DNA of 64,000 bases from an uncultured Collinsella sp. (GCA_900755685.1 CAAEHI010000052.1:39150-103149), one strand, 5' to 3'; positions 1,352 to 42,784 are shown, numbered from the stretch's first letter. Notes: generated by a model from the letters alone, not told the origin. Made by a program: numbers and translations.

Positions 1352-2379
1352 TGGCAGATACCAACGAGCGCACTCCGCTGCTGAAGGTCGAGCACCTCTC
1401 TAAGGAGTTTCCCGCTGAGTCCGGCATGTTCGCCAAGCGCTTCTCCAAGCGTGTCGTCTCTGCTGTAAATGACATCTCTTTTGAGATTTATCCTGGCGAG
1501 ACCTTTGGTCTGGTTGGCGAGTCTGGTTGCGGCAAGTCCACGACGGGCCGCACCATCATGCGTCTGACCAAGCCGACCGCCGGTAAGGTGTTCTTCCAGG
1601 GCAAAGATGTTGCCGAGATGAGCAAGCATGAGATCAAGGACATGCGTCGCGAGATGCAGTTTATCTTCCAGGATCCTTATGCTTCGCTCAACCCTCGTAT
1701 GACCATCGGAGAGATTGTCTCCGAGCCCATGACCATTCATGGCGTGGGTACCAAGGAGGAGCGCATTGAGCGCGTCCGCGAGCTTCTCGACGTCGTTGGA
1801 CTGAACCCCGAGCACATCAACCGCTATCCGCATGAGTTCTCCGGCGGTCAGCGTCAGCGTGTCGGCATTGCCCGCGCTTTTGCGCTGAAGCCCAAGCTGA
1901 TTATCTGCGACGAGCCGGTTTCCGCTCTGGATGTGTCCATTCAGGCCCAGGTTCTGAACCTACTGAAGGAGCTCCAGGACAAGTTCGGTACCGCATATCT
2001 GTTTATCGCCCACGACTTGTCCGTCGTGCAGCACATCTCCGATCGCGTTGCCGTTATGTATCTGGGTAAGATGGTCGAGGTTTCGGACTGGAAGACGCTC
2101 TACAGCGAGCCTCACCATCCGTACACGCAGTCGCTGCTGTCTGCCGTGCCGGTTCCCGATCCTGATATCCAGAAGACCCGCAAGCGCATCATCCTCGCTG
2201 GCGATCCGCCGTCGCCGCTGGATCCGCCGACCGGCTGCCGTTTCCACACGCGCTGCCCGATCGCTCAGGGCATCTGCTCCGAGAAGCTTCCCGAGTTTAA
2301 GGAAGTCGCACCGGGTCACTGCTGCGCCTGCCACTTCGCGGAGCCGTTCCCGATTAAGGAATCGCACATCGACTTGTAG
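1351..2379 (+). CDS. oppF: Oligopeptide ABC transporter ATP-binding protein (OppF-type)
   Basis: 342 aa. Walker A GESGCGKST, signature FSGGQRQR, Walker B ICDEPVSALD. The ATG overlaps the oppD stop (TAATG). Confidence 0.9.
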   Translation: MADTNERTPLLKVEHLSKEFPAESGMFAKRFSKRVVSAVNDISFEIYPGETFGLVGESGCGKSTTGRTIMRLTKPTAGKVFFQGKDVAEMSKHEIKDMRREMQFIFQDPYASLNPRMTIGEIVSEPMTIHGVGTKEERIERVRELLDVVGLNPEHINRYPHEFSGGQRQRVGIARAFALKPKLIICDEPVSALDVSIQAQVLNLLKELQDKFGTAYLFIAHDLSVVQHISDRVAVMYLGKMVEVSDWKTLYSEPHHPYTQSLLSAVPVPDPDIQKTRKRIILAGDPPSPLDPPTGCRFHTRCPIAQGICSEKLPEFKEVAPGHCCACHFAEPFPIKESHIDL

Positions 2380-2395
2380 CCGGTTGTTATCGTCC

Positions 2396-2522
2396 GGGCC
2401 CGCCCTGAAGTTACTTTTCAGAACGTCCTCGGACATGCAAGAAACCCCCGCTGCGCACTTCGTGCGGCGGGGGGTTCTTGCGTCCTGCGGAGTGTTCTGA
2501 AAAGTAACTTCAGGGCGGGCCC
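2396..2522. repeat. 127-nt perfect palindrome (29-bp arms) enclosing a second nested hairpin; probable terminator without a U-tract, or a structured RNA
   Basis: gggcccgccctgaagttacttttcagaac…gttctgaaaagtaacttcagggcgggccc. The inner hairpin is caagaaacccccgc…gcggggggttcttg with an innermost cgcac-ttc-gtgcg. Confidence 0.5.
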
Positions 2523-2707
2523 TGGGGTAACTCGGCAGGGAGAGTGCGATTCCTCGATCGCTCACTTAATCAAATGGAAAAGTTAGTGAGGCCGGAGCTT
2601 TGGCTCCGGCCTCCTCATATAAGGGCTCGGCAAAGCCGAGCCACCAAATTTGCATCAGCCCCCAGAACATGTTTGAGAACTGTGCACGGAGTACATACCC
2701 CTAGGGC

Positions 2708-2824
2708 CGGAATGAGGTTGCTTTCCAACGCATTCCGCAGGGGGCGGCATTATTTTGTAGCGCGAAGCGCGGAGCAAAATAATGCCGCATGCCCGAGGAC
2801 GCGTTGGAAAGCAACCTCATTCCG
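2708..2824. repeat. 117-nt perfect palindrome (24-bp arms) with a nested inner hairpin
   Basis: cggaatgaggttgctttccaacgc…gcgttggaaagcaacctcattccg. Inner hairpin gcggcattattttg…caaaataatgccgc with an innermost cgcg-aag-cgcg. Confidence 0.5.
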
Positions 2825-2885
2825 CCCCGAACAGGTCCGTCTACCTGCACATCTACAAATTCGTAAACTTTTTTGAAAAAAGTGC

Positions 2886-2914
2886 TTGCACAGTTCTCGA
2901 ATCATAGGTTATTA
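2886..2914 (+). promoter_or_regulatory. Putative sigma-70-type promoter for tRNA-Leu (UP-like A-tract, -35 ttgcac, -10 ttatta)
   Basis: ttttgaaaaaagtgcttgcac, then 17 nt, then ttatta. The UP/-35 part is nearly identical to the elements upstream of the tRNA-Gly copies at 6357 and 8712. Confidence 0.4.
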
Positions 2915-2972
2915 TCTTCCTCGTTGAACGCGCGGTTCCAACAAAACGAACCGTGAATCAACAACATAGCAT

Positions 2973-3062
2973 GTCGGAGTGGCGGAATTGGCAGACGCGC
3001 TAGCTTGAGGTGCTAGTGACCGCTTTTTGGTCATGCGGGTTCAAGTCCCGCCTCCGACACCA
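2973..3062 (+). tRNA. tRNA-Leu, anticodon GAG, with long variable arm and encoded CCA
   Basis: Acceptor stem gtcggag/ctccgac, anticodon stem ctagc/gctag with loop ttGAGgt, long variable arm, T-arm gcggg-ttcaagt-cccgc, 3' ACCA. Confidence 0.9.
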
Positions 3063-3072
3063 TCGCATTTGA

Positions 3073-3097
3073 GAAGCCTCTTCGGAGGCTTTTTTGT
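3073..3097 (+). terminator. Rho-independent terminator after tRNA-Leu
   Basis: aagcctc-ttcg-gaggctt followed by tttttt. Confidence 0.7.
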
Positions 3098-3121
3098 TAC
3101 CGATAGACGGTGAGGTCCACG

Positions 3122-5467
3122 ATGGAAACGCTTGAACGCAACGAGTGGGCAGATGTTGCCCAACTGGTCGAGATCACGAGCGATGCTGTCATCATTTGCG
3201 AGCTCGACGGAACCATTCTGCATGTGAATAATCGCTTACTTGGCTTGATGTGCGAGGAACGTGCCGACGTCATCGGTGGAGATGTTAAAGACGTCCTGTA
3301 CTCGTCCGCTTTTGAACGTGCGACGGAACATCGTCTGCCATTTGAAACTGATGGCTCCGAGAACGAACTGATGCTCAAGCTGAGTGACGGCTCTTTTATC
3401 CCCGTCTTGGTTCGTGCGGGCTCCGTAACGCCTCCACGCATCTTTGGGCGCCGCGCACCACGTGTCCTAGTGGCGCTTCACAGTATCGAGGAACAGTATT
3501 CTCACGACCGTCAACTTAAGCGTGCGTTATCGGAGCTTAGAGTGGCGAACAAGCGTCTCTCTGGCACGCTCTCGGTCATTATGAGCACTGTGGGCTCCGA
3601 TGAGTTACCCAGCCTGCTTGATACTGTTTTGAACCAGCTTGTAGGAACGCTCGATGCTTCGGGTGCCGCTATCTATTTTTCTGAGAGCGGCGGTTTTAAG
3701 CTACGCGGTGTTTCCAAGGAGCTGTATGACAGCTACCTGCCTGAGTTTTTGCCGTATGGCGCTGGCATTCCGACGTATGTTCTTCGCGAGTCGCGTGCCT
3801 GTCGCTTGTCGATTCAACAGGACCTTGAGGGCGATAGGGCCGCCTCCGGTATGTTCATGGACTTGGACAATCGTTCTAAGCACCTGTTGCGCGTGCAGGA
3901 TATGCCTCCGTACCGCAGCGAGATTTGTCTTCCCGTTTTTTACGGTACGCAGATCCTTGGCGTGCTTGAAGTTGGTTGGAAACGCCCCCAGGCACCGCTC
4001 GCCTATGACGTTAATGTGCTCGAGGTCATTTGCGATTACCTGTCTATCCAGCTGGTCGGCATGGCATCGAGCCTTCGCTCCCGTCGCACGGCCGAGCTTG
4101 GCCGCTCGCTCAATGTCTTGCGTGATGAGTTGTTTGCCTTTCTAGACGATTCCGCCGCGGCTACCCAGGCGGTATCGTCCGAGATCTGCAATATGCTTAA
4201 CTGCCATTTTTGCCCTGTTGAGTATGACGCCAGTCTGGATTCCTACGTCATAGATTTTGAAGGCGGCAGTCGCGTTGCTTTGCCGGACGATCCCGAGAAG
4301 CTTTTCTTTTCCACGACGGCGCCAGCGGCACGTCTGGGGGCTGGCCCTGATGGCTTTGAGGCATCTGTTTTGGGCGGTACGAGTGCCGAGGACCTTAAAC
4401 ACGTCCGTATAACTCGCGTTGACGAATCGATGCCTATGGGAGGCTGGCTTAGGGCGCACGGTCTGCCTTGTCAAGGTCTCTACGTTGACTCCGGCATCGA
4501 GGCGGGGCGCCCGCGCTCTGAGGGTGATGGCAGGCACAGTAACGACGCGATTGTTCCTGCTTCTGTTGCGAAGAGCCCGACGACGCGCGCGCTGCTGCTT
4601 CGTGATGGTAGCCAAGAGCCGATTGATGATCTTGAATATGACTACTTGGTGCACTTGGCGCATGACTTTGAACTGATCTACGAAGGCGAATCTCAAAAGC
4701 GCGAGGAGCGCCATATCGCTCAGACCCTTCAGATCGGCATGAGAAATTCCCTGGGGGATGTTCCGGGTATCGCAACCGATTCGGTGTACCTGTCGGCCAC
4801 GAACTCGGCGTTGGTCGGCGGCGATTTCTATACGCTCATCCGTCTTCCCGACGACTGCGCCGTCATGATTCTGGGTGATGTGTCTGGCAAAGGCATTGAG
4901 GCCGCATCGATGTCCGCGCTCGTCAAGACGGCCCTGACGGCATATGCCTGGGAGGGCGCTGGACCGGCCCGCATGGCACGCTCCCTTAACAGCATGCTCA
5001 TGGGCTTTTCGAGGGTCGAGACGTTCGTGACGGCCTTTATCGCCAAGATTGACCTTAAGGCCGGACGCGCAACGTATTGTTCGGCGGGCCATCCTCCGAC
5101 CATGGTCATCAGGCCAGAGTCGATGCCGCTGGGTGGCGGTGAGGCACGTGGGGGAGAGGTTGAGCTGCTTGGATGCCAATCGGGCGTAATCGGTGCCTTT
5201 GAGAGCATGGTGTACGAGACAGGCGTGTTTACGTTCGCCCCCGGCGACATGCTCTTCATGTATACGGATGGAACGATTGAGGCCCGCGACCGCACCGGAG
5301 CGTTCTTTGGCGAGCAGCGCTTGCGCGACCTTCTGCTTTCTGTTTCGGGGGAGGGCGTGTCGGGCATTTGCGGCAAGGTCTTGGGCGAGCTTGACCGATT
5401 TACCGAATCGGCGCTGGACGATGACATTGCATTGGTGTCCCTTGAGTTTTTACGGGGTCGTTCATAG
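3122..5467 (+). CDS. Sensor serine phosphatase: PAS and GAF domains plus a PP2C (SpoIIE/RsbU-type) phosphatase domain
   Basis: RBS ggtgagg 6 nt before the ATG at 3122. N-terminal PAS-like region, a central GAF-like region, and C-terminal PP2C motifs (GGDFYT…ILGDVSGKGIEAA…TAFIAKID…SAGHPP…FMYTDG). Confidence 0.8.
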   Translation: METLERNEWADVAQLVEITSDAVIICELDGTILHVNNRLLGLMCEERADVIGGDVKDVLYSSAFERATEHRLPFETDGSENELMLKLSDGSFIPVLVRAGSVTPPRIFGRRAPRVLVALHSIEEQYSHDRQLKRALSELRVANKRLSGTLSVIMSTVGSDELPSLLDTVLNQLVGTLDASGAAIYFSESGGFKLRGVSKELYDSYLPEFLPYGAGIPTYVLRESRACRLSIQQDLEGDRAASGMFMDLDNRSKHLLRVQDMPPYRSEICLPVFYGTQILGVLEVGWKRPQAPLAYDVNVLEVICDYLSIQLVGMASSLRSRRTAELGRSLNVLRDELFAFLDDSAAATQAVSSEICNMLNCHFCPVEYDASLDSYVIDFEGGSRVALPDDPEKLFFSTTAPAARLGAGPDGFEASVLGGTSAEDLKHVRITRVDESMPMGGWLRAHGLPCQGLYVDSGIEAGRPRSEGDGRHSNDAIVPASVAKSPTTRALLLRDGSQEPIDDLEYDYLVHLAHDFELIYEGESQKREERHIAQTLQIGMRNSLGDVPGIATDSVYLSATNSALVGGDFYTLIRLPDDCAVMILGDVSGKGIEAASMSALVKTALTAYAWEGAGPARMARSLNSMLMGFSRVETFVTAFIAKIDLKAGRATYCSAGHPPTMVIRPESMPLGGGEARGGEVELLGCQSGVIGAFESMVYETGVFTFAPGDMLFMYTDGTIEARDRTGAFFGEQRLRDLLLSVSGEGVSGICGKVLGELDRFTESALDDDIALVSLEFLRGRS

Positions 5468-5545
5468 ACGACGCTGGGCGGGCTGAGTCCGTACGGTTGG
5501 GGAAACGAATGCATCGAGTGGGCTTTTTTGGGGAACCATGGTCGT

Positions 5546-6292
5546 ATGAATGAGTGGAATGACATAGCGGTTTTGACGCCACCAGGCGATATCGACATCG
5601 CCACGGTGCCTGCGCTGCGTCGGCGGTTGGATGCCTTGATTGGCCGCGGCGTGCGTCGTGTCGTTATCAACTGTCAGGCTGTTAGCTTTATCGATTCGAC
5701 GGGCTTGGCATTCCTGCTTACGCGCGCTCGTGAGCTCATGAGGCGAGAAGGCCTGCTTTCGCTCGTCAATGCATCAGGTGAAGTTGTTCGCTTTTTGGAG
5801 ATTGCTCGTCTTGTCGATATCCTTCATGTCGCGGGGCCGGCACGGGAGTCTATTCCCGCTATTCCGGTGGGGGAGCTGCCTCGCTGGAGTAAGAGTGTCG
5901 AGGTCCGTCAGGGTATCGAGAATCTTCCATACTACCGACATCGCATCGCCGAACTCCTTGAATCGCTTCCGTTGCGCCGTGACGAGCGCTACGATGTCGC
6001 ATTGGCATCGGGGGAGGCGCTGGGTAATGCCTATGACCATGCGGGCGGTATCGGGTGCGTCCTGACGGTTCAGGCCTATGGCGATCGCGTTGTGGTTGAG
6101 GTGCTTGATCGAGGTGCCGGCTATTCTATCGATGAAACGAGCGAGCCGGTCGCATCTGAGGAACGCGGCCGTGGTATCAAGCTTATGCGTATGCTCGTCG
6201 ATAACGTGGAGGTTGCTCGTCGTACGGACGGCGCCGGCACGCGCGTGCAGATGGTGAAGCTGTTTAGCGGAGCGCTGGAATCGTGCGCCTAG
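5546..6292 (+). CDS. Fused anti-sigma-factor antagonist (STAS) and anti-sigma serine kinase (RsbW/SpoIIAB-like GHKL ATPase)
   Basis: The N-terminal ~110 aa are STAS-like (VINCQAVSFIDSTGLAFLL). The C-terminal ~130 aa carry GHKL motifs (EALGNAYDHAG, VLDRGAGY, RGRGIKLMR). The start codon is uncertain: the frame opens at TTG 5528, the first ATG is 5546. Confidence 0.75.
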   Translation: MNEWNDIAVLTPPGDIDIATVPALRRRLDALIGRGVRRVVINCQAVSFIDSTGLAFLLTRARELMRREGLLSLVNASGEVVRFLEIARLVDILHVAGPARESIPAIPVGELPRWSKSVEVRQGIENLPYYRHRIAELLESLPLRRDERYDVALASGEALGNAYDHAGGIGCVLTVQAYGDRVVVEVLDRGAGYSIDETSEPVASEERGRGIKLMRMLVDNVEVARRTDGAGTRVQMVKLFSGALESCA

Positions 6293-6356
6293 CCAATCGC
6301 TTTAGCGCGTTTGGCTATTAAGAACATGCGGCAGACAAGTTTTTTGAAAAAAGTAC

Positions 6357-6385
6357 TTGCGTCTTTTGGACAACTCGCGTAAATT
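6357..6385 (+). promoter_or_regulatory. Promoter of the tRNA-Gly/Cys/Gly cluster (-35 ttgcgt, 17-nt spacer, -10 taaatt, upstream A-tract)
   Basis: ttttttgaaaaaagtacttgcgt-(17 nt)-taaatt, ending 12 nt before the tRNA 5' end. Confidence 0.55.
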
Positions 6386-6397
6386 AATAACCCGCAA

Positions 6398-6473
6398 GCG
6401 GACATGGCTCAGTTGGTAGAGCACAACCTTGCCAAGGTTGGGGTCGCGGGTTCGAGCCCCGTTGTCCGCTCCA
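6398..6473 (+). tRNA. tRNA-Gly, anticodon GCC (copy 1 of 3 identical copies)
   Basis: gcggacatggctcagttggtagagcacaaccttGCCaaggttggggtcgcgggttcgagccccgttgtccgctcca. Cloverleaf with anticodon stem caacc/ggttg and encoded CCA. Confidence 0.9.
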
Positions 6474-6507
6474 TTGCATTTCCGGACCGTTTAGGCGGTC
6501 CTTTTTC

Positions 6508-6581
6508 GGCGAAGTGGCCAAGTGGTAAGGCAGAGGCCTGCAAAGCCTTTACCCCCGGTTCGAATCCGGGCTTCGCCTCCA
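6508..6581 (+). tRNA. tRNA-Cys, anticodon GCA
   Basis: Acceptor ggcgaag/cttcgcc, anticodon loop ctGCAaa, T-arm cccgg-ttcgaat-ccggg, encoded CCA. A small hairpin with a T-tract lies just upstream (6483-6507). Confidence 0.9.
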
Positions 6582-6623
6582 GGCAACATCCGGGCGCTCC
6601 GGCGCCCGTTTTGTTTTACATAT

Positions 6624-6699
6624 GCGGACATGGCTCAGTTGGTAGAGCACAACCTTGCCAAGGTTGGGGTCGCGGGTTCGAGCCCCGTTGTCCGCTCCA
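6624..6699 (+). tRNA. tRNA-Gly, anticodon GCC (copy 2, identical to copy 1)
   Basis: 76/76 identity with 6398-6473. Confidence 0.9.
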
Positions 6700-6707
6700 A
6701 ACGCAGC

Positions 6708-6739
6708 AGCCCGACTACCACGGTAGCCGGGCTTTTTTG
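6708..6739 (+). terminator. Rho-independent terminator after the tRNA cluster
   Basis: cccgactacc-ac-ggtagccggg followed by cttttttgt. Confidence 0.55.
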
Positions 6740-6877
6740 TACCCATCGCCTGGGCTCGAACCCGAGAGGGAGCGAGCGTTTTGGGGCGTGGCTGTGGCGT
6801 TGTTTGCCGCGAATGTCCGCTTTGGGCGTATCATCGTGGGCATCTCGCATAACCTCGTTGCAAGGGAGATATGTCCC

Positions 6878-8611
6878 ATGACTACAGAAAAGTCTTCTTC
6901 GCGCTCATGGATGTCTGATGCCGCGATCTATCAGATCTACCCGCGCTCGTTTAAGGATTCGACTGGTTCGGGTCTGGGTGATATCGCGGGCATTACCCAG
7001 CAGATGGACTATCTTGAGCGGCTGGGTATCGAGGCCATCTGGCTGAGCCCGTTTTACCCATCGCCTCTTGTCGATGGTGGCTATGATGTGACGGACTACT
7101 GCGATGTCGATCCACGTCTCGGCTCGCTTGGCGACTTCGATGACATGATCGCTGCGGCTCACGCGCGCGGCATCAGGATTATCGTCGATATCGTGCCCAA
7201 CCATTCATCCAACCAGCACCCCTGGTTCAAAGCCGCTCTTGCCGCCGGCTCCGGATCGCCCGAGCGCGCCCGTTATATCTTCCGCGATGGTCGCGGCGAG
7301 CATGGCGAGCTGCCTCCCACCAATTGGAATGCCAACTTTGGCGGCCCCGCATGGACGCGTGTTGCGGACGGTCAGTGGTATCTGCACATGTTTACGCCCG
7401 AGCAGCCGGACTTTGACTGGTCATGCCCTGAGGTTCACGCGCTCTTTTGCGACGTCCTGGCGTTTTGGAGCGATCGAGGCGTCGACGGCTTTCGCATTGA
7501 TGTGGCGCAGGGTCTCGCCAAGGATCTCGACCGCGATGACCTCGACCGGTGGCATCTCGCCGAGGGCGATGACATGGTTGACGACGGCACCCATCCGCTG
7601 TGGGACCGCAATGAGGTCCACGAGATCTATCGCGAGTGGCGCCGCGTGTTCGACCGCTATAATCCGCCGCGCTGCGCCGTTGCCGAGGCGTGGGTGCTGC
7701 CCGAGCGCCAGTATCTCTACGCGCGTCCCAGCGAGCTTGGCCAGACATTCAACTTTGAGTTTGCCAAGGCCACTTGGACCTATGATGACATGCACACTGC
7801 AATCGAGAAGGGCTTGAAGGCAGCCGTCGAATCTGATTCCGCCTCGACCTGGGTACTCTCCAACCACGACGTGCCGCGCGTGGCGACACGCTATGCCCTG
7901 CCGCAAATCAAGGCGACGCGCTACCACCAGATTGCGCTCGACTGGCTCTTACGCGACGGGTCGTCTTATGACGAGGACCGTGAACTCGGCGAGCGCCGCG
8001 CGCGGGCGGCCCTTTTGCTTGAGCTGGCGCTTCCGGGCTCGGCATACGTGTATCAGGGTGAGGAGCTCGGCCTTTTTGAGGTGGCTGATATCCCGTGGGC
8101 TGCACTCGAAGACCCTACTGCGACCAATACGCACGGACCGAAGCGTGAGAAGGGGCGCGACGGCTGTCGTGTGCCCCTGCCGTGGGTGGCGGCGGACGAT
8201 CCCGCGCATGGCGGATCGTTTGGGTTTTCGCCGGTGAACGCCGATGCGGCGCCCCATCTGCCGCAGCCTGCATGGTTTTCCGATTACGCTGCCGATAGGG
8301 AAGAAGCGGACCCGACATCGATGCTTACGCTCTATCGTGACGCCCTCTGGCTACGGCGCAAGCTGCGCGGGTGCGCCAACGATCTTGCGTGGCTTGATCT
8401 TGACGGGCGCACCGGTCTTGCGGATGGTGCCGAGGGCGCTGAGGGTGGTGTCATTGCCTATCGCCGCGATAACGGCTGGGCGTGTGTGACGAACTTTGGC
8501 GCAGCACCCGTGGAGCTGCCGGCGGGCAGGGTCCTGCTCACCTCATCACCGCTTGCAGACGGCAGGCTCGCGCAGGACAGCTCCGCCTGGATCATGCTCG
8601 GTGAGATGTAG
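6878..8611 (+). CDS. GH13 alpha-glucosidase, oligo-1,6-glucosidase-like
   Basis: RBS agggag before the ATG at 6878. AIYQIYPRSFKDS…GIRIIVDIVPNHSSNQHPWF…GFRIDVAQG and other GH13 alpha-amylase-family motifs. The six-frame ORF from 6404 runs through the tRNA genes and is not the real start. Confidence 0.85.
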   Translation: MTTEKSSSRSWMSDAAIYQIYPRSFKDSTGSGLGDIAGITQQMDYLERLGIEAIWLSPFYPSPLVDGGYDVTDYCDVDPRLGSLGDFDDMIAAAHARGIRIIVDIVPNHSSNQHPWFKAALAAGSGSPERARYIFRDGRGEHGELPPTNWNANFGGPAWTRVADGQWYLHMFTPEQPDFDWSCPEVHALFCDVLAFWSDRGVDGFRIDVAQGLAKDLDRDDLDRWHLAEGDDMVDDGTHPLWDRNEVHEIYREWRRVFDRYNPPRCAVAEAWVLPERQYLYARPSELGQTFNFEFAKATWTYDDMHTAIEKGLKAAVESDSASTWVLSNHDVPRVATRYALPQIKATRYHQIALDWLLRDGSSYDEDRELGERRARAALLLELALPGSAYVYQGEELGLFEVADIPWAALEDPTATNTHGPKREKGRDGCRVPLPWVAADDPAHGGSFGFSPVNADAAPHLPQPAWFSDYAADREEADPTSMLTLYRDALWLRRKLRGCANDLAWLDLDGRTGLADGAEGAEGGVIAYRRDNGWACVTNFGAAPVELPAGRVLLTSSPLADGRLAQDSSAWIMLGEM

Positions 8612-8711
8612 GGGCCTTTTGCGGCGAGTTTGCGTTTGTCTGCGCCTTCCGTGGTGGCTGATGTCTTCGCGAGGTTCGCGAGGGCGTCGCAAAACTTTTT
8701 AAAAAAAGATC

Positions 8712-8740
8712 TTGCATTTGGGTGGATCATCCCGTATATT
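8712..8740 (+). promoter_or_regulatory. Promoter of the tRNA-Gly/Val pair (-35 ttgcat, 17-nt spacer, -10 tatatt, upstream A-tract)
   Basis: ctttttaaaaaaagatcttgcat-(17 nt)-tatatt, ending 12 nt before the tRNA. Confidence 0.55.
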
Positions 8741-8752
8741 AAATCCTCGCAG

Positions 8753-8828
8753 GCGGACATGGCTCAGTTGGTAGAGCACAACCTTGCCAAGGTTGGGGTC
8801 GCGGGTTCGAGCCCCGTTGTCCGCTCCA
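8753..8828 (+). tRNA. tRNA-Gly, anticodon GCC (copy 3, identical)
   Basis: 76/76 identity with 6398-6473. Confidence 0.9.
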
Positions 8829-8831
8829 TTT

Positions 8832-8906
8832 GGGCGTTTAGCTCAGGGGGAGAGCGCTTCCCTGACACGGAAGAGGTCAGAAGTTCAAATCTTCTAACGC
8901 CCACCA
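8832..8906 (+). tRNA. tRNA-Val, anticodon GAC
   Basis: Acceptor gggcgtt/aacgccc, anticodon stem cttcc/ggaag with loop ctGACac, T-arm agaag-ttcaaat-cttct, encoded CCA. Begins 3 nt after tRNA-Gly. Confidence 0.9.
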
Positions 8907-8918
8907 AATGTTCGCAGC

Positions 8919-8950
8919 TCAGAGACTATGTCTCTGGGCTGTTTTGTTTT
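8919..8950 (+). terminator. Rho-independent terminator after tRNA-Val
   Basis: cagagac-tat-gtctctg followed by ggctgttttgtttt. Confidence 0.55.
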
Positions 8951-9256
8951 ATGTCGTCAAATGTGGCACCAGATATTGAACTCAAGATCCGCGTGCGATG
9001 ATCTTCGCATCCCGTAGGGGCACTGGCTGATTGCATACGTCCTGACCGCGCGTGACCGCAACATGTTGGTCAAGCGCAATCTTTTGGATTATTTTGGCGT
9101 GAGCGGCTTGGTTTTAGTAGGATTTGTCAGCGGCTTGACTAAGGGGGTTTTATAACTGCCATGCAGGTAGCCGTGTTGGTAACGTTTTACCGACTTGTCA
9201 AATACCCCTCATTTATAATGCGTCTGCAAAATGACTAATTGCTTTGACCTGCTGAA

Positions 9257-9272
9257 ACACTATATGTTGTGT
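9257..9272. promoter_or_regulatory. NrdR-box-like 16-bp palindrome upstream of nrdD
   Basis: acactatatgttgtgt matches the NrdR operator consensus (acaCwAtATaTwGtgt). It lies ~260 bp upstream of the nrdD start in an AT-rich non-coding region. A weaker second half-site lies ~31 bp downstream (acaggatatagatgca). Confidence 0.5.
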
Positions 9273-9529
9273 TTGACCTAAAAAAAGAATACAGGATATA
9301 GATGCATCTTTGTCGTATGATAGATGGCGGACAGAGAACGAAGACCTTAATTGCCTCTTTTGAACGTGTCCTTGAGCCGCTTGATCGGCTCCTGGGAATG
9401 TCCGCATAGAGGCTTATGGTTTATCGAGAACACAGATTGCGCGACGGCGCCGCAAGACAGGGGCAAGCCCTGCCGGGCATCGTTTGGCTCTGAAGCGCAA
9501 TGAGGCTACGACGCGAAAGAGGCAAGAGG

Positions 9530-11752
9530 ATGAAGATCATCAAGCGCAGCGGCACCGAGGTTGTCTTTGACATCGATAAGATTGTCAATGCCATCCGCGC
9601 CGCTAACTTGGAGGTCGAGGAGAGCTCTCGTCTAACCGACCGCCAGGTGGTTTATGCGGCGCAAAACGTCGCCGAGGCATGCGAGAACGCGGGCCACACC
9701 GTTTCGGTCGAGGAGATCCAGGATTTGGTCGAGGACGAGATCATGCGTCTCGACTGCTACGAGGTTGCCCGCCACTACATCATCTATCGCTATGTTCAGA
9801 GCCTGAAGCGCCAGAAGAACACGACCGATGACAAGATCCTGTCGCTGATCGAGTGCAATAACGAAGAGGTCAAGCAGGAGAACTCCAACAAGAACCCGAC
9901 CGTCAACTCCGTTCAGCGCGACTATATGGCTGGCGAGATTTCCAAGGACCTGACCCAGCGCGTGCTGCTGCCTCAGGAGATCGTGGATGCCCATAATGAG
10001 GGTCTGATCCATTTCCACGATTCGGATTACTTTGCCCAGCATATGCACAACTGCGATCTGGTGAACCTGGAGGACATGCTCCAGAACGGCACTGTTATTT
10101 CGGGCACGCTGATTGAGAAGCCGCACAGCTTCTCGACCGCCTGCAATATTGCGACGCAGATTATCGCCCAGGTTGCTTCCTCCCAGTACGGCGGCCAGTC
10201 CATCTCGCTGACCCATCTTGCCCCCTTTGTTGAGGTGAGCCGTCAAAAGATTCGTGGCGAGGTCGCCCGCGAGCTCGAGGAGCTCGGCGTTTCCGCATCT
10301 CCCGAAAAGGTTCGCGAGGTCGTTGAGGATCGCCTGCGTGACGAGATCCGTCGCGGCGTCCAGACGATTCAGTATCAGGTCGTGACCCTTATGACCACCA
10401 ATGGCCAGGCGCCGTTCGTGACGGTCTTTATGTATCTTAACGAGGCCCGTACGCCTCAGGAGAAGCACGACCTTGCCATGATCGTGGAGGAGACGCTTCG
10501 CCAGCGCTACGAGGGCGTTAAGAACGAGGCCGGCGTGTGGATTACCCCGGCATTCCCCAAGCTTATCTATGTACTCGAGGACGATAACGTTCACGAGGAT
10601 TCCCCGTACTTCTACCTGACCCAGCTGGCTGCCAAGTGCACCGCCAAGCGCATGGTGCCCGATTACATCTCCGAGAAGAAGATGCGCGAGCTCAAGCTGT
10701 CTAAGGGCGAGACCGCCGGCAACGGCGATTGCTACACCTGCATGGGTTGCCGCAGTTTCCTGACGCCCGACCGTTCGGGCAACGGTTTTAACAACGTTGC
10801 CAACGCGCTGAACTACGACCCGAACAAGCCCAAGTACTATGGTCGCTTTAACCAGGGCGTTGTGACCATCAACCTGCCTGATGTCGCACTGAGCTCGCAC
10901 CAGGATATGGACAAGTTCTGGAAGATCTTCGATGAGCGCCTTGAGCTGTGTCACCGTGCCCTGCTGTGCCGTCATGAGCGCCTGATGGGTACACTTTCTG
11001 ACGCCGCGCCGATTCTTTGGCAATACGGCGCCCTGGCGCGTCTGAAGAAGGGCGAGACGATCGACAAGCTGCTCGTGGGCGGATACTCTACGATCAGCCT
11101 GGGCTATGCCGGCCTGTATGAGTGCGTTAAGTACATGACGGGTCACAGCCACACCGAGAAGGAGGGCACGCCGTTTGCCATGGCCGTCATGCAGCACATG
11201 AACGACAAGTGCGCCGAGTGGAAGGCCGAAAGCGATATCGACTTCTCGCTGTACGGCACCCCGCTTGAGTCGACGACCTACAAGTTTGCCAAGTGCCTGC
11301 AGCGCCGTTTTGGCATTATCCCGGGCGTGACGGACAAGGGCTACATTACCAACAGCTATCACGTCCATGTGTCCGAGGAGATCGACGCATTCGACAAGCT
11401 CAAGTTCGAGGGTATGTTCCAGCAGCTTTCGCCGGGCGGTGCCATCTCCTACGTCGAGGTTCCCAACATGCAGGACAACCTCAAGGCTGTCATTCGCGTG
11501 ATGCAGTACATCTACGACAACATCATGTACGCCGAGCTCAACACCAAGAGCGACTACTGCCAGGTGTGCGGCTACGACGGTGAGATCAAGATTGTCGAGG
11601 ACGATGGCAAGCTGGTGTGGGAGTGCCCCAACTGCGGCAACCGCGACCAGGAGAAGATGAATGTCGCTCGTCGTACGTGCGGCTACATCGGTACCCAGTT
11701 CTGGAACCAGGGTCGAACCGAGGAGATCCGCGACCGCGTGCTGCATCTCTAA
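9530..11752 (+). CDS. nrdD: Anaerobic ribonucleoside-triphosphate reductase (class III RNR)
   Basis: RBS aagagg before the ATG at 9530 (MKIIKRSGTEVVFD…). ATP-cone N-terminus, C-terminal Zn-ribbon CPNCG, and the glycyl-radical motif region (RRTCGYIGT) at the C-terminus. Confidence 0.9.
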   Translation: MKIIKRSGTEVVFDIDKIVNAIRAANLEVEESSRLTDRQVVYAAQNVAEACENAGHTVSVEEIQDLVEDEIMRLDCYEVARHYIIYRYVQSLKRQKNTTDDKILSLIECNNEEVKQENSNKNPTVNSVQRDYMAGEISKDLTQRVLLPQEIVDAHNEGLIHFHDSDYFAQHMHNCDLVNLEDMLQNGTVISGTLIEKPHSFSTACNIATQIIAQVASSQYGGQSISLTHLAPFVEVSRQKIRGEVARELEELGVSASPEKVREVVEDRLRDEIRRGVQTIQYQVVTLMTTNGQAPFVTVFMYLNEARTPQEKHDLAMIVEETLRQRYEGVKNEAGVWITPAFPKLIYVLEDDNVHEDSPYFYLTQLAAKCTAKRMVPDYISEKKMRELKLSKGETAGNGDCYTCMGCRSFLTPDRSGNGFNNVANALNYDPNKPKYYGRFNQGVVTINLPDVALSSHQDMDKFWKIFDERLELCHRALLCRHERLMGTLSDAAPILWQYGALARLKKGETIDKLLVGGYSTISLGYAGLYECVKYMTGHSHTEKEGTPFAMAVMQHMNDKCAEWKAESDIDFSLYGTPLESTTYKFAKCLQRRFGIIPGVTDKGYITNSYHVHVSEEIDAFDKLKFEGMFQQLSPGGAISYVEVPNMQDNLKAVIRVMQYIYDNIMYAELNTKSDYCQVCGYDGEIKIVEDDGKLVWECPNCGNRDQEKMNVARRTCGYIGTQFWNQGRTEEIRDRVLHL

Positions 11753-34854: not shown

Positions 34855-35292
34855 CTAGGCTCGGCCGCGCAGCTCGATATCTTGGATATCGTCGAAATCG
34901 ATGGCGATATCCCTGAGTTTGAGGAGCTTGAAGGCAGGGAGTACCTCGTCGAGGATGCCGGTACGGGAGCGATAGCCGTACGTATCGTAATAGGTGACGC
35001 GGACCAGGTCGCCACGTTTGAGACCCTCGAGCTTTTTAGAAAGCACGAGGGCTTTTTCTTCCGTGAGCTCACGTTTTGGCTCGACGGTGATTTCCTGCTT
35101 GCGCACGAGTTCGTAGTATCCCGTGAGGGCGGAAAAGGGCATAAACTGTGCGGCGCGGTTGGCGCGCACGGCACCGTTGGCTGTGAGGCTGGGGTCGGCG
35201 GCGCGGCGTCTGCCCTCGGGGTCCGCCAGGCGCTCGAAGGCGGTCGGCGGGCGCACGGGCTGTTGTTTGGGTTTAGGCACGGTGTCCTCCAA
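34855..35292 (-). CDS. YolD-like protein (companion of Y-family polymerases)
   Basis: 145 aa, immediately downstream of and overlapping the Y-family polymerase gene. The C-terminal region resembles the YolD family. Assignment by context and weak similarity. Confidence 0.55.
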   Translation of the reverse strand: MEDTVPKPKQQPVRPPTAFERLADPEGRRRAADPSLTANGAVRANRAAQFMPFSALTGYYELVRKQEITVEPKRELTEEKALVLSKKLEGLKRGDLVRVTYYDTYGYRSRTGILDEVLPAFKLLKLRDIAIDFDDIQDIELRGRA

Positions 35293-36844
35293 CTTGGTCG
35301 TTGCGTTCGCGCGCGGTGGCGCCGGCGGTAAAGCTTAATCCCTTGACGAGCGCGTTCTTGCCGTACTTGTCTTTCACAGCCAGGACGGCGCGCGCCAGGT
35401 CGCGCTCGCGCTCATCGGCCTCGACATCGCTAAACAGATCGATAGTGGCAAATTCCTCGGGCACAAGATTGCCAAAGCCCAGGTTGATGCGCTTGACCGG
35501 TCGTTTAGGGTCGACGGTTTTCGCCCAAAGGTCATCGAAATAGCCCATGATCTTCTTAAACGAATTGGTGCGCTCGGGTAGCTTTCGCGAGGCATTGGAG
35601 TGCGCAAAGAGTGCGGCATAGCCACCACGCGGTTTGCCGCCATGCTCTCCCACAAAGATGCCATCGATTGCCTGCGCTTCGCGCACCAGGCGACGCCTTT
35701 CGTCATCGCACTGGACGGGCTTGGGCGCACGGGGTGCGAGCTCGGGGCCGGCGGTTGCGGTGGGTTCGATGCTCGATGTGCTCGAGCGCAGGTGTCCGCA
35801 TCCGTCCACATATTGTGCGGTACCGCTGGCATCAAGCCTGCGGATGTCGGCGCGCTCGCTCGCGTAGCCCACAAAGAGCGAGATGCTGTCACATACCACG
35901 TGCTTATCGACCAAGTCCAGCACGGCACTGTCGACCATCTCGCGCAAGACGGTGTAGGCCTGCTCGTAGGCATAGCCCTTCGAGAGCACCTGTCCTGTAG
36001 TGGTCGAAGTTGCTTGCGGGCGATAGGCTTGGATATCGGCGATGGTTGTCGGCTCGCGTCCGAAGGCGTGGTCGATGAGATACTCGGCATTGACGCCGAG
36101 CTCGTCGTAAAGCAGGTTTTCGTCGAGCGCCGCGACGCCCATCAGATCGTAGACGCCGTATTTTTCGAGTCGTGCTGCCACGCCGGGGCCGATGCCCCAG
36201 ATATCGGTGATGGGACGATGGGGCCAGATTTCCTTGCGAAAGGTCTCGTCGTCGAGTATGCCGATGCGGCTGGGTACGTGCTTGGCGGTGATATCGAGTG
36301 CAACCTTGGCCTGGAATAGGTTGGGGCCGATGCCGACCGTCGCCGTGATGCCGGTGCGCGCCAGGACCTCGTCGCGCAACATGCAGGCGAGCCCTTCCGC
36401 ATCGGTGTGATAAAGGTCCAGATAGGGTGTCACGTCGATAAAGCACTCGTCAATTGAGTAGACGTGAACGTCTTGCGGACTGACGTATTCCAGGTAGATA
36501 CCGTAGATCTGCGCCGACACCTCCATGTAGTGCTGCATGCGCGGTACGGCCTTGATGTAGTCGATGCCGTCGGGAATCTCAAATAGGCGGCAGCGATTGT
36601 GAATCCCTAGGTCCTTCATAGCCTGCGTGATGGCGAGGCAGATGGTCGTGCGTCCGCGCGATTCGTCGGCAACGACCAGGTTGGTGGTGAGCGGGTTGAG
36701 CCCGCGGTCGACGCACTCGACGCTAGCGTAAAACGTCTTGAGGTCGATGCAGATATAGGTGTGACGCTCGTGCCCCACGCGTCCTCCCATCAAACACATG
36801 TTCTTATCGAATATCTGTTCGATAATACCCGCTCGTCCGGACAT
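35273..36844 (-). CDS. Y-family translesion DNA polymerase (UmuC/DinB/ImuB superfamily)
   Basis: YICIDLKTFYASVECVDRGL…SIDECFIDVT… are the catalytic motifs of the impB/mucB/samB family. The start codon is uncertain (TTG 36850, ATG 36844, ATG 36790). Confidence 0.8.
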   Translation of the reverse strand: MSGRAGIIEQIFDKNMCLMGGRVGHERHTYICIDLKTFYASVECVDRGLNPLTTNLVVADESRGRTTICLAITQAMKDLGIHNRCRLFEIPDGIDYIKAVPRMQHYMEVSAQIYGIYLEYVSPQDVHVYSIDECFIDVTPYLDLYHTDAEGLACMLRDEVLARTGITATVGIGPNLFQAKVALDITAKHVPSRIGILDDETFRKEIWPHRPITDIWGIGPGVAARLEKYGVYDLMGVAALDENLLYDELGVNAEYLIDHAFGREPTTIADIQAYRPQATSTTTGQVLSKGYAYEQAYTVLREMVDSAVLDLVDKHVVCDSISLFVGYASERADIRRLDASGTAQYVDGCGHLRSSTSSIEPTATAGPELAPRAPKPVQCDDERRRLVREAQAIDGIFVGEHGGKPRGGYAALFAHSNASRKLPERTNSFKKIMGYFDDLWAKTVDPKRPVKRINLGFGNLVPEEFATIDLFSDVEADERERDLARAVLAVKDKYGKNALVKGLSFTAGATARERNDQVGGHRA

Positions 36845-36962
36845 CGTCAAAACCTGTCAAAAAGGGACTGGTTTGTTTTGGTAGGTATGGTCGTGCAGTT
36901 GGATCGGGTTTTAACGCAGCTCTAAAGAGTGCGAAACAGCTCGGAAAACCTCGCTTCGTAGC

Positions 36963-39573: not shown

Positions 39574-40878
39574 CTAGATCTCGGCCTCCGCATGGCCTCG
39601 CTGTGCCTCGGGCAGCTCCCCGTAGAGCGGATGGTCTTCGAGCCTAAAGCGCTCGACCTGTTCGGGAGTGCGACCGCGTACAAAGAGCCACGAGCGATCG
39701 ATCGGCGTCGCCATGAGCGTGCTGGGTAGCGCGTCGGCGCGGTCGGAAAACACCCGGGCACTCTCGGGATCCTGGAACGCCAGCACCAGATGCGTGTCGC
39801 AGTTGCCCATGATGGAGCGTGCGCGTGCCTCGCCATAGAGCGCATCGAGCTGGTTGGTCGACTGCAGCAGCAGCGTTGCCCAGATGTTGCGGCTTCGGAT
39901 AATCGAGAGCACGTTGTCGATCTGGGGGATCTGCAGATTTGCGAAGTCATCGAGCATAAAGCGCACGGGCACGGGCAGGCTGCCGTCGGGCTGCCTATCG
40001 GCCTCACGAATGAGGCCCATAAACGCCTGCGAAATAAAGAGGCCGGTCAGCGGATCGAGATTGCGGTCAATATCGCTCACGGTTACAAACAGGGCGCAGG
40101 GGGTGTGTCCCATGGAAGCGAAGTCCACCTGATGGCACTCACGATAGAGCTGTGCCGCACCGTCGAATCCCAGACACATGACCTTTTCGGCAAGGATGCC
40201 GACGATGCTCGCGTGCATGCGCTCGGCATTTTGCGTAATGGCGTAGCGCCGCCATAGCGAGAGGGCATAGCCTTGGGGGTCGGTCGTGATCAGATCGTCA
40301 AACAATCGGGCCGTGGCACCGTCCTGCAGGTGCTCGATCAGCTTGATGACCGAGCTGATCGTCTGCTCGTCGGCGGGTAGCTGTTCGGTGACGTAGGCGA
40401 TAAGACACGACAGCAGGTTTGCCGCCGCATGATCCCAAAAAGGCTGGTTGTTGTCCTCGATGGGGCAGATGGCCTTTGCCACCGAGAGGATGTCCTGCTG
40501 GTTGGGCCTGCCGTCTGCCTTGCGGCGAATGTGCCTCAGGGGGTTGTAGCCGCAGCGCTCGATGCCGGGCGCAAGGGTCGGGACGGTGTTGAGGTCGGCG
40601 AAGTTGAGACATTGCACGCGGTAACCGTGGGCTGCCAGCACGGGTCCCACTTCGCGACAGAGCGTGCCTTTGGTGTCGAGCACGATGTAGCTTGCGTTCA
40701 TTTGCAGCAGGTTGGGCTTGAGGACGTTTCGGGTCTTGCCGGCTCCCGAGGGGCCGATCACAAGTGCGTTGTTGTTGAGTCCCGTTTGGCGGGTGTCGCA
40801 GGAAAGCGTTCGATCCTTGGCGAGGATGGTGGACGATGCGGACTCAGATGCGGCGAGGCGGCTGGTGAGGTTAGACAT
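39574..40878 (-). CDS. Soluble TraG/VirD4/TraD-family (type IV coupling protein-like) ATPase lacking the N-terminal membrane anchor
   Basis: RBS aggagg before the ATG at 40878. Walker A VIGPSGAGKT followed by the T4CP-typical PNLL…S-IVLDTKGT…G-RV-CLNF block; Walker B FMLDDFANL; C-terminal LLLQSTNQLDALYGE…MGNCDTHLVLAFQD block. No TM segments and no other conjugation genes nearby. Confidence 0.65.
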   Translation of the reverse strand: MSNLTSRLAASESASSTILAKDRTLSCDTRQTGLNNNALVIGPSGAGKTRNVLKPNLLQMNASYIVLDTKGTLCREVGPVLAAHGYRVQCLNFADLNTVPTLAPGIERCGYNPLRHIRRKADGRPNQQDILSVAKAICPIEDNNQPFWDHAAANLLSCLIAYVTEQLPADEQTISSVIKLIEHLQDGATARLFDDLITTDPQGYALSLWRRYAITQNAERMHASIVGILAEKVMCLGFDGAAQLYRECHQVDFASMGHTPCALFVTVSDIDRNLDPLTGLFISQAFMGLIREADRQPDGSLPVPVRFMLDDFANLQIPQIDNVLSIIRSRNIWATLLLQSTNQLDALYGEARARSIMGNCDTHLVLAFQDPESARVFSDRADALPSTLMATPIDRSWLFVRGRTPEQVERFRLEDHPLYGELPEAQRGHAEAEI

Positions 40879-41488
40879 GGGCGACCTCCTTGGTGGTCGA
40901 GAGGATTTCGTGGGCAAAGCCGAGCTCGACGGCGCGCTCGGCCGAAAGGTAGGTGTCTTTTGCAGTGAGGGACTGGATGCGCTTGGGCGTGAGGCCGCTG
41001 CGGTCCGAGAGGATTTGCGTGAGGGTCTTGCGGGTCTGCATGAGACGCCGGCTGGTTTCCTGCAGCGCAAGTGCCGAGCCGCCTGCCCCCTGGGGGATCA
41101 GTGGGTCGTGAATCATGAGCTCTGCATGGGGCGCCATACGGCGATCGTCGCCGCCCATAAAGATCACAGCGCCCATGGACGCGGCGAATTCCAGGCAGAC
41201 GGTGCGGATGGGGCACGATGCGAGGCGCATGGCGTCATAGATCGCAAGACCCGATCGCACGCTTCCGCCGGCGCTGGCGACAAATATGGTGATGGGGCGG
41301 CTGGGGTCGGTGGCATCGAGCAGGCGGATCTGCTGGCATAGGTCGTGGGCCATCGGGGTTTCGATGTTTCCCATGACGGAGAGCTCGCGACGGGCGAGCA
41401 TCTCATCGTAAATGCTGGTGAGCGTGATACCTCGGGCGGATTCACGCATGGTGAGGGGGCTGATGATGGGGGAATGATTGGTGTCCAT
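40871..41488 (-). CDS. ClpP-family (S14) serine protease-like protein
   Basis: 205 aa. Ser (EFAASMGAVI), His (ELMIHDP) and Asp (AKDTYLSAERA) are in the ClpP catalytic-triad arrangement. The stop is 2 nt before the T4CP-like start. Confidence 0.75.
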   Translation of the reverse strand: MDTNHSPIISPLTMRESARGITLTSIYDEMLARRELSVMGNIETPMAHDLCQQIRLLDATDPSRPITIFVASAGGSVRSGLAIYDAMRLASCPIRTVCLEFAASMGAVIFMGGDDRRMAPHAELMIHDPLIPQGAGGSALALQETSRRLMQTRKTLTQILSDRSGLTPKRIQSLTAKDTYLSAERAVELGFAHEILSTTKEVAHV

Positions 41489-42442: not shown

Positions 42443-42784
42443 AGCTTCTCCAATCGGTTGATGTTCGTGCTGTTTGTTGATGTGCTGGTTGTCGTGAGTG
42501 ATGCGCTTGCCGTGGGTGATGTGCTGACGTTGGGGTGCTATGCGGTTTTCAATGAGCCCGTGAGGCAGTTGCTGCAGGGGCGGGATGGAACGGCCCATGC
42601 AAGGCGGAAGGCATCGTGCTCAAAATCGAGACAGCAATGCCCTGGGTGCCTCACATGTGGCAGTTACCTCATTAAGTTGTCATTGCGTTTGGGGTTGTAC
42701 TTTGCCGATCTTCCTTCTCTTACACGCTAAAACTCAAACTTCATATGCTCGATCTACTTAAAACCGCAACGGCGGTCTTTTATC

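Follow-up and report, generated by a model that had tools for sequence, protein, structure and literature searches.

A 64,000-nucleotide (nt) stretch of DNA from an uncultured Collinsella sp. (GCA_900755685.1 CAAEHI010000052.1:39150-103149; the whole stretch is hereafter called the window) carries, between positions 3,122 and 6,292, two co-directional open reading frames (ORFs). The first encodes a sensor phosphatase and the second a single polypeptide that joins an N-terminal STAS domain, of the anti-sigma factor antagonist type, to a C-terminal RsbW-like GHKL kinase domain. A preliminary description of this locus, made from the sequence alone, had proposed a fusion of this kind, about 250 amino acids (aa) long and directly downstream of a PAS-GAF-PP2C gene, and our analysis agrees: both domains are recognized in one chain (PF01740, TIGR00377 and PF13581), the product measures 248 aa from the ATG at 5546, and in the gene upstream the PP2C and GAF domains score over their cutoffs while the PAS domain is recognized through 30 of 36 orthologues. 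The Pfam annotation that had been suggested as a check recovered STAS, HATPase_c_2, SpoIIE and GAF, with PAS_9 sub-threshold in the window sequence. Judged from sequence comparison, what is new here is a conserved and apparently phospho-competent family of STAS-RsbW fusions that is coupled to a sensor-PP2C gene and has no sigma factor gene adjacent to it. The features of the module, with the evidence for each, are as follows.

3122..5467, + strand: phosphatase gene (alternative GTG start at 3110); ORF list, gene callers, Pfam and AlphaFold2
3179..3484, + strand: PAS-like sensor domain, residues ~20-121; sub-threshold PAS_9, orthologues and AlphaFold2
3602..4054, + strand: GAF domain, residues 161-311; Pfam
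4151..4603, + strand: alpha/beta domain without a Pfam match, residues ~344-494; AlphaFold2 secondary structure only
4850..5449, + strand: PP2C/SpoIIE catalytic domain, residues 577-776; PF07228
5468..5545, + strand: intergenic spacer of 78 nt (60 nt with the TTG start of the fusion gene); sequence
5546..6292, + strand: STAS-RsbW fusion gene (TTG alternative at 5528); ORF, Pfam, NCBIfam and homologue N-termini
5558..5830, + strand: STAS (RsbV/SpoIIAA-type) domain, residues 11-101; PF01740, TIGR00377 and RsbV/SpoIIAA matches
5693..5704, + strand: predicted phospho-acceptor D56-S57-T58-G59 (Ser57, codon tcg, at 5696-5698); RsbV/SpoIIAA alignment
5831..5899, + strand: interdomain linker, residues ~102-124; variable, with lower model confidence
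5918..6259, + strand: RsbW/SpoIIAB-type GHKL kinase domain, residues 131-244; PF13581, profile and Foldseek

Domains and conserved residues of the fusion

The ORF of the fusion (5528-6292) comprises 254 codons in one uninterrupted frame. Because most homologues begin at the residue that corresponds to M7 (ATG 5546), and because a GGGGAA sequence lies 10 nt before this ATG, the product is likely to be 248 aa long; residue numbers are given here in the 254-aa form (in the 248-aa form the STAS domain spans residues 5-95 and the kinase domain residues 125-238). The N-terminal half matches the STAS family PF01740 (E 1.4e-18, 67.1 bits against a cutoff of 22.6) and the NCBIfam anti-sigma antagonist model TIGR00377 (73.5 bits against a cutoff of 53.45), while the C-terminal half matches HATPase_c_2 (PF13581; E 4.7e-16, 59.4 bits against a cutoff of 27.4). 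Unlike the usual RsbV/SpoIIAA-type antagonists, the STAS domain of the window is thus not free-standing, as a kinase domain follows in the same frame.

A frameshift or the artificial merging of two ordinary genes, an alternative that the preliminary description had itself raised, can be ruled out as the source of this arrangement, given the single open frame from 5528 to 6292, the recurrence of an identical product in thousands of assemblies and the existence of fusions at 24-53% identity. Public assemblies contain the exact 254-aa product in 10,159 indexed blocks, and the 90%-identity cluster of the protein has 8,942 member sequences. HMMER, run against 1.84 billion representatives, found 8,361 matches, and architectures were judged on the best 150 of these. 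About 60 of the best 150, which are representatives of 50%-identity clusters, were 230-300 aa long and aligned end to end at 24-53% identity, and Pfam showed STAS followed by HATPase_c_2 in all four of the distant fusions tested.

Both halves of the protein are bona fide members of the RsbV- and RsbW-type families. In the STAS half, D56-S57-T58-G59 falls in register with the DSTGL of RsbV (6m36_B) and the DSSGL of SpoIIAA (1th8_B). In the kinase half, the N box (E163/N167/H171), the G1 box (D194-x-G196-x-G198) and the G2 box (G214-x-G216) are all present and align with those of RsbW and SpoIIAB. A profile of this half matched RsbW 6m36_A over residues 5-140 of 141 (E 3.5e-25), followed by SpoIIAB (E 1.6e-16), the kinase domain of Rv1364c (E 1.5e-10) and LvrC (E 5e-10). 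Structure comparison gave the same assignments: Foldseek aligned the AlphaFold2 model of the fusion with RsbW 6m36_A at a target-normalised TM-score of 0.93 and a root-mean-square deviation of 1.3, and the STAS half matched RsbV and SpoIIAA domain by domain.

The catalytic and acceptor residues are retained well beyond the window. Among 35 Coriobacteriaceae homologues, D56, S57 and G59 are invariant and the three kinase boxes are invariant or nearly so. We also examined a distant set of 55 representatives with 22-42% identity to the window fusion, in which the N-box Glu and Asn are present in all 55 and His171 in 50, the G1 Asp in 54, the two G1 glycines in 55 and 54, the G2 glycines in 54 each and an acceptor Ser/Thr in 50. 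An Arg that aligns with R20 of SpoIIAB is kept in all 55 of these representatives; in SpoIIAB this residue touches both SpoIIAA and sigma-F. Between the two domains lies a linker whose length and sequence vary across the family, and whose residues 101-110 have a mean predicted local distance difference test score (pLDDT) of 61 in the AlphaFold2 model, compared with 81.7 for the fusion model. A linker of ~20 residues could permit the kinase to react with the STAS domain either in cis or, within a dimer, in trans.

The conservation of the acceptor also bears on whether the tethered STAS domain is a substrate of the kinase. It could instead serve as a pseudo-substrate or regulatory lid, in which case the kinase would phosphorylate free-standing STAS proteins and the module would be one arm of a larger network. 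Actinobacteria often have several cross-talking RsbW and RsbV paralogues, and RsbW1, RsbW2 and RsbW3 of M. smegmatis have distinct roles (PMC7693655). Free-standing kinase paralogues with ~50% identity to the kinase half of the fusions occur in Armatimonadota, and five of the 55 distant family members have the kinase motifs and lack the acceptor, as this alternative would allow. Against this, the acceptor Ser/Thr is present in 50 of these 55 representatives and in 35 of 35 Coriobacteriaceae homologues, and neither the window nor the related loci showed a gene for a free STAS protein. We consider it unlikely that the fused STAS domain acts only in this indirect way.

Other arrangements of the same domains were also encountered. 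Proteins of ~240 aa suspected of having the reverse order, with the kinase before STAS, were resolved by Pfam as tandem STAS-STAS proteins (P0237). Further STAS architectures among P0237, P0225, P0247, P0246 and P0253 include STAS-STAS, STAS-STAS-STAS and an SpoIIE-HTH-STAS(x3) protein of 882 aa, while P0253 itself (894 aa) has a GAF-GAF-SpoIIE-HATPase_c_2-STAS order like that of Rv1364c. In P0124 (573 aa, from a single Logan contig of 1,971 bp), a CDF transporter with a ZT_dimer domain appears to be fused to a STAS-HATPase_c_2 unit with 47% identity to the window protein; this could be either a genuine fusion of three parts or an artefact of read-through.

The sensor phosphatase and its pairing with the fusion

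The gene upstream of the fusion encodes a phosphatase of 781 aa from the ATG at 3122, which is the form used by public gene callers, with the domain order PAS, helix, GAF, helix, an extra alpha/beta domain, helix and PP2C. The catalytic domain matches PF07228 (SpoIIE/PP2C; E 4e-44, 151 bits against a cutoff of 25), its metal-binding aspartates are invariant in 36 orthologues (GGD568, GD586VSGKG, TD716G and D767D768), and among solved structures the PP2C domain of Rv1364c is closest in sequence (3ke6, E 3e-12). On the sensory side, GAF_2 (E 2e-9) and GAF (E 9e-9) both score over cutoff, and a GAF domain is found in 36 of 36 orthologues. The PAS_9 match of the window phosphatase is under its cutoff (E 1.4e-3). 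Among the 36 orthologues PAS_9 is found in 30 (best E 1.5e-7), PAS_4 in 24 and PAS in 22, and AlphaFold2 predicts a five-stranded alpha/beta pattern over residues 22-121 of the window protein. The model (pLDDT 74.8) places the GAF domain at ~162-286 and the PP2C domain at 550-776, with long helices at 294-339 and 503-540 flanking the extra alpha/beta domain and another helix between PAS and GAF. This extra domain (~344-494) is conserved, contains low-confidence loops at 398-415 and 461-484 and, on the basis of the model, may be a second, degenerate sensor domain.

The window belongs to Collinsella aerofaciens, named isolates of which carry loci 99-100% identical to it, and the best 80 loci from a profile search of genome contigs were all from Collinsella. 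Named relatives of the fusion occur in Collinsella ureilytica, in Atopobiaceae and in metagenome-assembled genomes (MAGs) of Armatimonadota, where they are annotated merely as 'anti-sigma factor antagonist', 'ATP-binding protein' or 'RsbW'. The comparison of the fusion's distribution that the preliminary description had called for shows that, besides Coriobacteriia and Armatimonadota, at least one other lineage, of lower G+C content, has it.

According to the gene tables, six of the seven distinct contexts have a sensor-PP2C gene immediately upstream of the fusion and co-directional with it. The sensor domains encoded upstream and the distance to the fusion gene in each pair are listed below.

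C. aerofaciens window: PAS-GAF-PP2C upstream, gap of 60-78 nt
Coriobacteriaceae-type context, 57% identity: GAF-SpoIIE upstream, gap of 29 nt
Coriobacteriaceae MAG, 61% identity: GAF-SpoIIE upstream, gap of 44 nt
Armatimonadota MAG (P0285): GAFx3-SpoIIE upstream, gap of 8 nt
Armatimonadota-type contig (P0337, placed by similarity): HAMP-GAFx2-SpoIIE upstream, overlap of 4 nt
Armatimonadota-type contig (P0333, placed by similarity): HAMP-GAFx2-SpoIIE upstream, gap of 18 nt
Contig of 48.7% G+C with choline-binding-repeat neighbours: PAS-SpoIIE upstream, gap of 29 nt

The two HAMP-GAFx2 contexts (L088 and L092) are probably one lineage, since all their neighbouring genes are common to both. The one context of the seven that lacks the pairing is an Armatimonadota-type subgroup (P0298), with no phosphatase gene near the fusion. 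A tblastn search also found a PP2C homologue directly upstream and on the same strand at 89 of 90 fusion loci, but about 84 of the paired loci come from one species group, so that we count the independent cases as six contexts. While the sensor domains vary from one lineage to another (PAS+GAF, GAFx3, HAMP+GAFx2 or PAS), the pairing of PP2C with the fusion persists. That the pairing is kept despite the change of sensor is what would be expected if the phosphatase acts on the fusion protein, and from this we infer that it dephosphorylates the phosphorylated STAS domain.

The Armatimonadota-type loci have some further features of their own. A gene for an MGDG_synth/GT28-type glycosyltransferase lies directly 3' of the fusion gene in L088 (6786-7904, where its start abuts the stop codon of the fusion) and in L092 (5831-6937), and recalls All4160, the STAS-regulated glycosyltransferase of Anabaena. 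A free-standing kinase paralogue of 175 aa (P0365, with related members in Armatimonadota) shares ~50% identity with the kinase half of the fusions from Armatimonadota; next to its gene (L094 and L095, 6001-7588) lie a FeoAB locus for iron uptake and a gene for an Arrestin_N-like protein, and none of its neighbours is a STAS, PP2C or sigma factor gene.

A candidate partner-switching circuit and its output

Partner switching is a textbook route from signal to gene expression, and how such a switch behaves depends on the amount of kinase relative to antagonist. We propose that the two genes described here probably, though by no means certainly, form a compact partner-switching phospho-switch, the target of which would most likely be a sigma factor encoded elsewhere in the genome. 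The C-terminal RsbW-like domain would bind ATP and phosphorylate Ser57 of the tethered STAS domain, in the same chain or in a dimer partner, and the upstream PP2C phosphatase, with its activity set by the PAS and GAF sensors, would strip this phosphate. Dephosphorylated STAS would then dock on the partner-binding face of the kinase, which includes the family-invariant Arg aligned with Arg20 of SpoIIAB, and the docking would displace, or block the binding of, a protein that the kinase domain otherwise sequesters. Phosphorylated STAS would be released, so that the kinase domain could hold its target. The preliminary description had suggested that the kinase autophosphorylates the STAS domain of its own chain and that the phosphatase resets it, and this mechanism is consistent with the conserved residues, with the conserved gene pairing and with the precedent of Rv1364c.

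Rv1364c, a regulator of SigF in M. tuberculosis, has sensor, PP2C, kinase and STAS domains, in that order, in one chain, and both adds phosphate to the STAS domain of this chain and takes it off again (Greenstein 2009, as cited in PMC7693655). It combines the same four functions, and its PP2C and kinase domains are among the nearest solved relatives of the window proteins (3ke6; E 3e-12 and E 1.5e-10, respectively). The preliminary description had likened the module to Rv1364c with a different domain order and split, and the comparison is apt: in the window there are two chains, divided between PP2C and STAS, the STAS domain comes before the kinase and the two genes are 60-78 nt apart.

The RsbU/RsbP-RsbV-RsbW and SpoIIE-SpoIIAA-SpoIIAB systems of Bacillus comprise the same three activities and share with the module the Ser of the DS(S/T)G motif, the N, G1 and G2 boxes, the R20-aligned Arg and the PP2C aspartates. 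In Bacillus, however, antagonist and kinase are separate proteins whose ratio can be adjusted and the sigma factor gene is part of the operon, whereas in the window antagonist and kinase are tethered 1:1 and no sigma factor gene is nearby. A second fused relative is LvrC (LIC11110) of Leptospira interrogans, in which a receiver domain precedes an RsbW-like domain and for which a role as an anti-sigma factor, controlled through phosphorylation of the fused domain, has been proposed (PMC13269768; PDB 9qih). LvrC 9qih was the top whole-chain Foldseek match of the fusion and, in a single-sequence search, the closest solved sequence for its kinase half. Like the window fusion, it has an N-terminal phospho-acceptor domain and a C-terminal RsbW-like domain of the Bergerat fold. 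Its acceptor, however, is a receiver Asp phosphorylated by a separate histidine kinase, whereas in the window the acceptor would be a STAS Ser phosphorylated by the fused domain. The N-terminal domain of the window protein is STAS and not Response_reg, and the sequence match to LvrC runs through the Bergerat half only.

The protein closest to the window fusion in layout is SipA (AMIS_54230) of Actinoplanes missouriensis, described in 2023, with STAS at residues 6-103 and the RsbW-like domain at residues 158-239 of its 243 aa; it is the anti-sigma factor of the adjacent sigma-SsdA (Tezuka et al. 2023, PMC10733313). Its two domains bind each other in two-hybrid assays (PMC10733313), and its authors stated in 2023 that no protein of similar domain structure had been reported and that orthologues were limited to Micromonosporaceae and one Nonomuraea (PMC10733313). 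SipA and the window fusion have the same two domains in the same order, are of near-equal size (243 versus 248 aa) and both come from Actinomycetota. With SipA already described, the STAS-then-RsbW fusion as such is not unprecedented, a precedent that the preliminary description had missed; the module is not a new kind of system, and its bare architecture is already published.

We compared the two proteins using residues 33-65 and 146-243 of SipA, taken from its authors' AlphaFold PDB file. At the acceptor position SipA reads H53-V-E-Q-P57 and has no Ser/Thr. It keeps the N box (E162, N166 and H170) and the G2 box (RGRGL), whereas its G1 box reads D192-G-S-T-D, with both glycines lost. BLASTP found no similarity between the kinase-like domain of SipA and the window protein, and hhalign, comparing profiles of the kinase half with the partial SipA sequence, gave 89.6% probability at 23% identity. 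By sequence, the two proteins share an architecture and are at best distant relatives, and the phospho-chemistry conserved in the window family appears to have been lost from SipA. The genes beside them also differ: that of SipA adjoins ssdA, a gene for a SigB/F/G-type sigma factor with a STAS tail, whereas the window fusion adjoins a PP2C phosphatase gene.

These differences bear directly on whether the window protein could itself be a static anti-sigma factor of the SipA kind, with its domains permanently bound, no phosphorylation and regulation coming from elsewhere. Shared domain order and size, together with the constitutive interdomain contact that the SipA authors propose, speak for such a model. 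However, SipA lacks both the acceptor Ser/Thr and the DxGxG motif while the window family keeps both across phyla, the kinase-like domain of SipA has no BLASTP similarity to the window protein, and a static protein would leave the paired PP2C phosphatase without a role. We judge a static mode of action to be very improbable.

As to the output of the phospho-switch that we favour, the preliminary description had reported that no sigma factor gene is adjacent, and the gene tables and Pfam annotation of the window corroborate this. No Sigma70 domain was found in the gene tables for ~1-33 kb and 44-64 kb or by Pfam among ORFs of at least 200 aa in the 33-44 kb interval, and in the related contexts the 5-10 kb around the fusion contained no sigma factor gene. 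The same phospho-cycle could therefore have an output other than a sigma factor, with the STAS domain or the freed kinase domain binding an enzyme, a transporter or a DNA-binding regulator. Vibrio SypA is one STAS-protein precedent for a non-sigma output. Published systems provide others: in CapK/CapS (PMC13373217) and HenR/All4160 (PMC13555669) an RsbW-like kinase phosphorylates a STAS domain with a non-sigma output, HenR of Anabaena being a PP2C-type phosphatase that opposes the kinase (PMC13555669). In these systems kinase and STAS reside in separate proteins, with STAS joined to the output module, be it a DNA-binding repressor or a glycosyltransferase, and not, as in the window, to the kinase. 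A non-sigma output would also fit the glycosyltransferase gene directly 3' of the fusion in two Armatimonadota-type loci and the metagenomic P0124 protein, which joins a cation-efflux transporter to the STAS-kinase unit. On the other hand, the nearest relatives of the kinase half are true anti-sigma kinases (RsbW, SpoIIAB and the kinase domain of Rv1364c), and it keeps the R20-aligned Arg; SipA, with the same architecture, is an anti-sigma factor; and, the PP2C gene apart, the neighbouring genes differ from lineage to lineage, so that the context does not point to an alternative target. We regard a non-sigma output as a serious but lesser possibility.

Several observations weigh against the proposed phospho-switch as a whole. 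The absence of a sigma factor gene near the module in any lineage examined means that its output need not be a sigma factor, five of the 55 distant representatives lack the acceptor Ser/Thr, and one Armatimonadota-type subgroup (P0298, L091) has no adjacent phosphatase gene. The AlphaFold2 model is only moderately confident about the arrangement of the two domains (predicted template-modelling score of 0.61). A literature search found no experimental work on the STAS-RsbW fusion family or a close relative, and for SipA, the sole studied protein of this architecture, the authors propose a constitutive contact between the domains (PMC10733313).

A more far-reaching version of the proposal, which we put forward tentatively and with some doubt, is that the pair is a self-contained minimal switch without a dedicated alternative sigma factor, kept or repeatedly arisen in at least three distant lineages, and acting on a non-classical target, which might be the primary sigma factor, an envelope protein or a metabolic one. 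Because tethering fixes the antagonist:kinase ratio at 1:1, the phosphorylation state of such a switch would report the phosphatase signal only. If this were so, an abundant human gut commensal would control a non-classical target in this way; if the target is instead an alternative sigma factor encoded elsewhere, the fusion is a tidy and unsurprising union of two known partners. In either case, a 1:1 tethered version paired only with a sensor phosphatase would be the simplest form of the circuit, and would offer a convenient system in which to study cis versus trans kinase action and the effect of tethering on the response. The architecture of SipA had been thought confined to sporangium-forming actinomycetes, whereas the present family occurs in Collinsella aerofaciens, which is among the most frequently assembled gut Actinomycetota, and in Armatimonadota. 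We know of no signal transduction of this kind in either of these groups, and the identity of the target would reveal what this gut bacterium senses through the PAS and GAF domains.

Genomic surroundings of the module

The preliminary description had placed the module next to a tRNA cluster, and tRNA genes indeed flank it on both sides (tRNA-Leu at 2973-3062 and a Gly/Cys/Gly cluster at 6398-6699); its other neighbours in the window are an opp ABC transporter operon, a gene for a GH13 enzyme and nrdD. The flanking tRNA genes, which lie outside the module, are as follows.

2973..3062, + strand: tRNA-Leu(GAG), 59 nt 5' of the phosphatase ATG; ARAGORN and Rfam
6398..6699, + strand: tRNA-Gly(GCC), tRNA-Cys(GCA) and tRNA-Gly(GCC), starting 106 nt 3' of the fusion stop codon; ARAGORN and Rfam

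An Rfam scan of 2300-9600 returned tRNA genes only, with no riboswitch or leader. Since no terminator-like site was found between the phosphatase and fusion genes in a scan of 2400-6800, the two genes are probably on one transcript. The single promoter-like site near the phosphatase gene (2887-2915) lies 5' of tRNA-Leu, and as this tRNA ends 59 nt before the phosphatase ATG, the operon may be co-transcribed with it. The G+C content of the module (0.57) equals that of the window (0.58) closely enough that the module looks native to its host genome.

Upstream of the module, a non-coding gap of ~590 nt (2380-2972) separates the opp operon from tRNA-Leu. The window has no transposase in this gap, and some C. 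aerofaciens strains carry an IS110-family transposase gene there (L083, 3702-4991; L084, 49-807). Downstream, three tRNA-Gly(GCC) genes (6398, 6624 and 8753) have equal Rfam scores and are accompanied by tRNA-Cys and tRNA-Val (6398-8906). A mechanically called ORF at 6404-8611 runs through tRNA genes, the true GH13 alpha-amylase-family gene being at ~6878-8611. The distance from the fusion gene to the GH13 gene depends on the strain (585-772 nt in L081-L084), and this differing spacing suggests that tRNA copy number varies among strains.

Farther into the window, a 347-aa ORF (41552-42598, - strand) matches nothing in Pfam at E 1e-5, and the public gene index lacks its exact product. A gene for a Y-family DNA polymerase with IMS domains (35273-36850, - strand) and one for a TraG/VirD4-type coupling protein (39574-41070, - strand) lie a few kb apart, and these polymerase and type IV secretion coupling-protein genes may be remnants of an integrated conjugative element.

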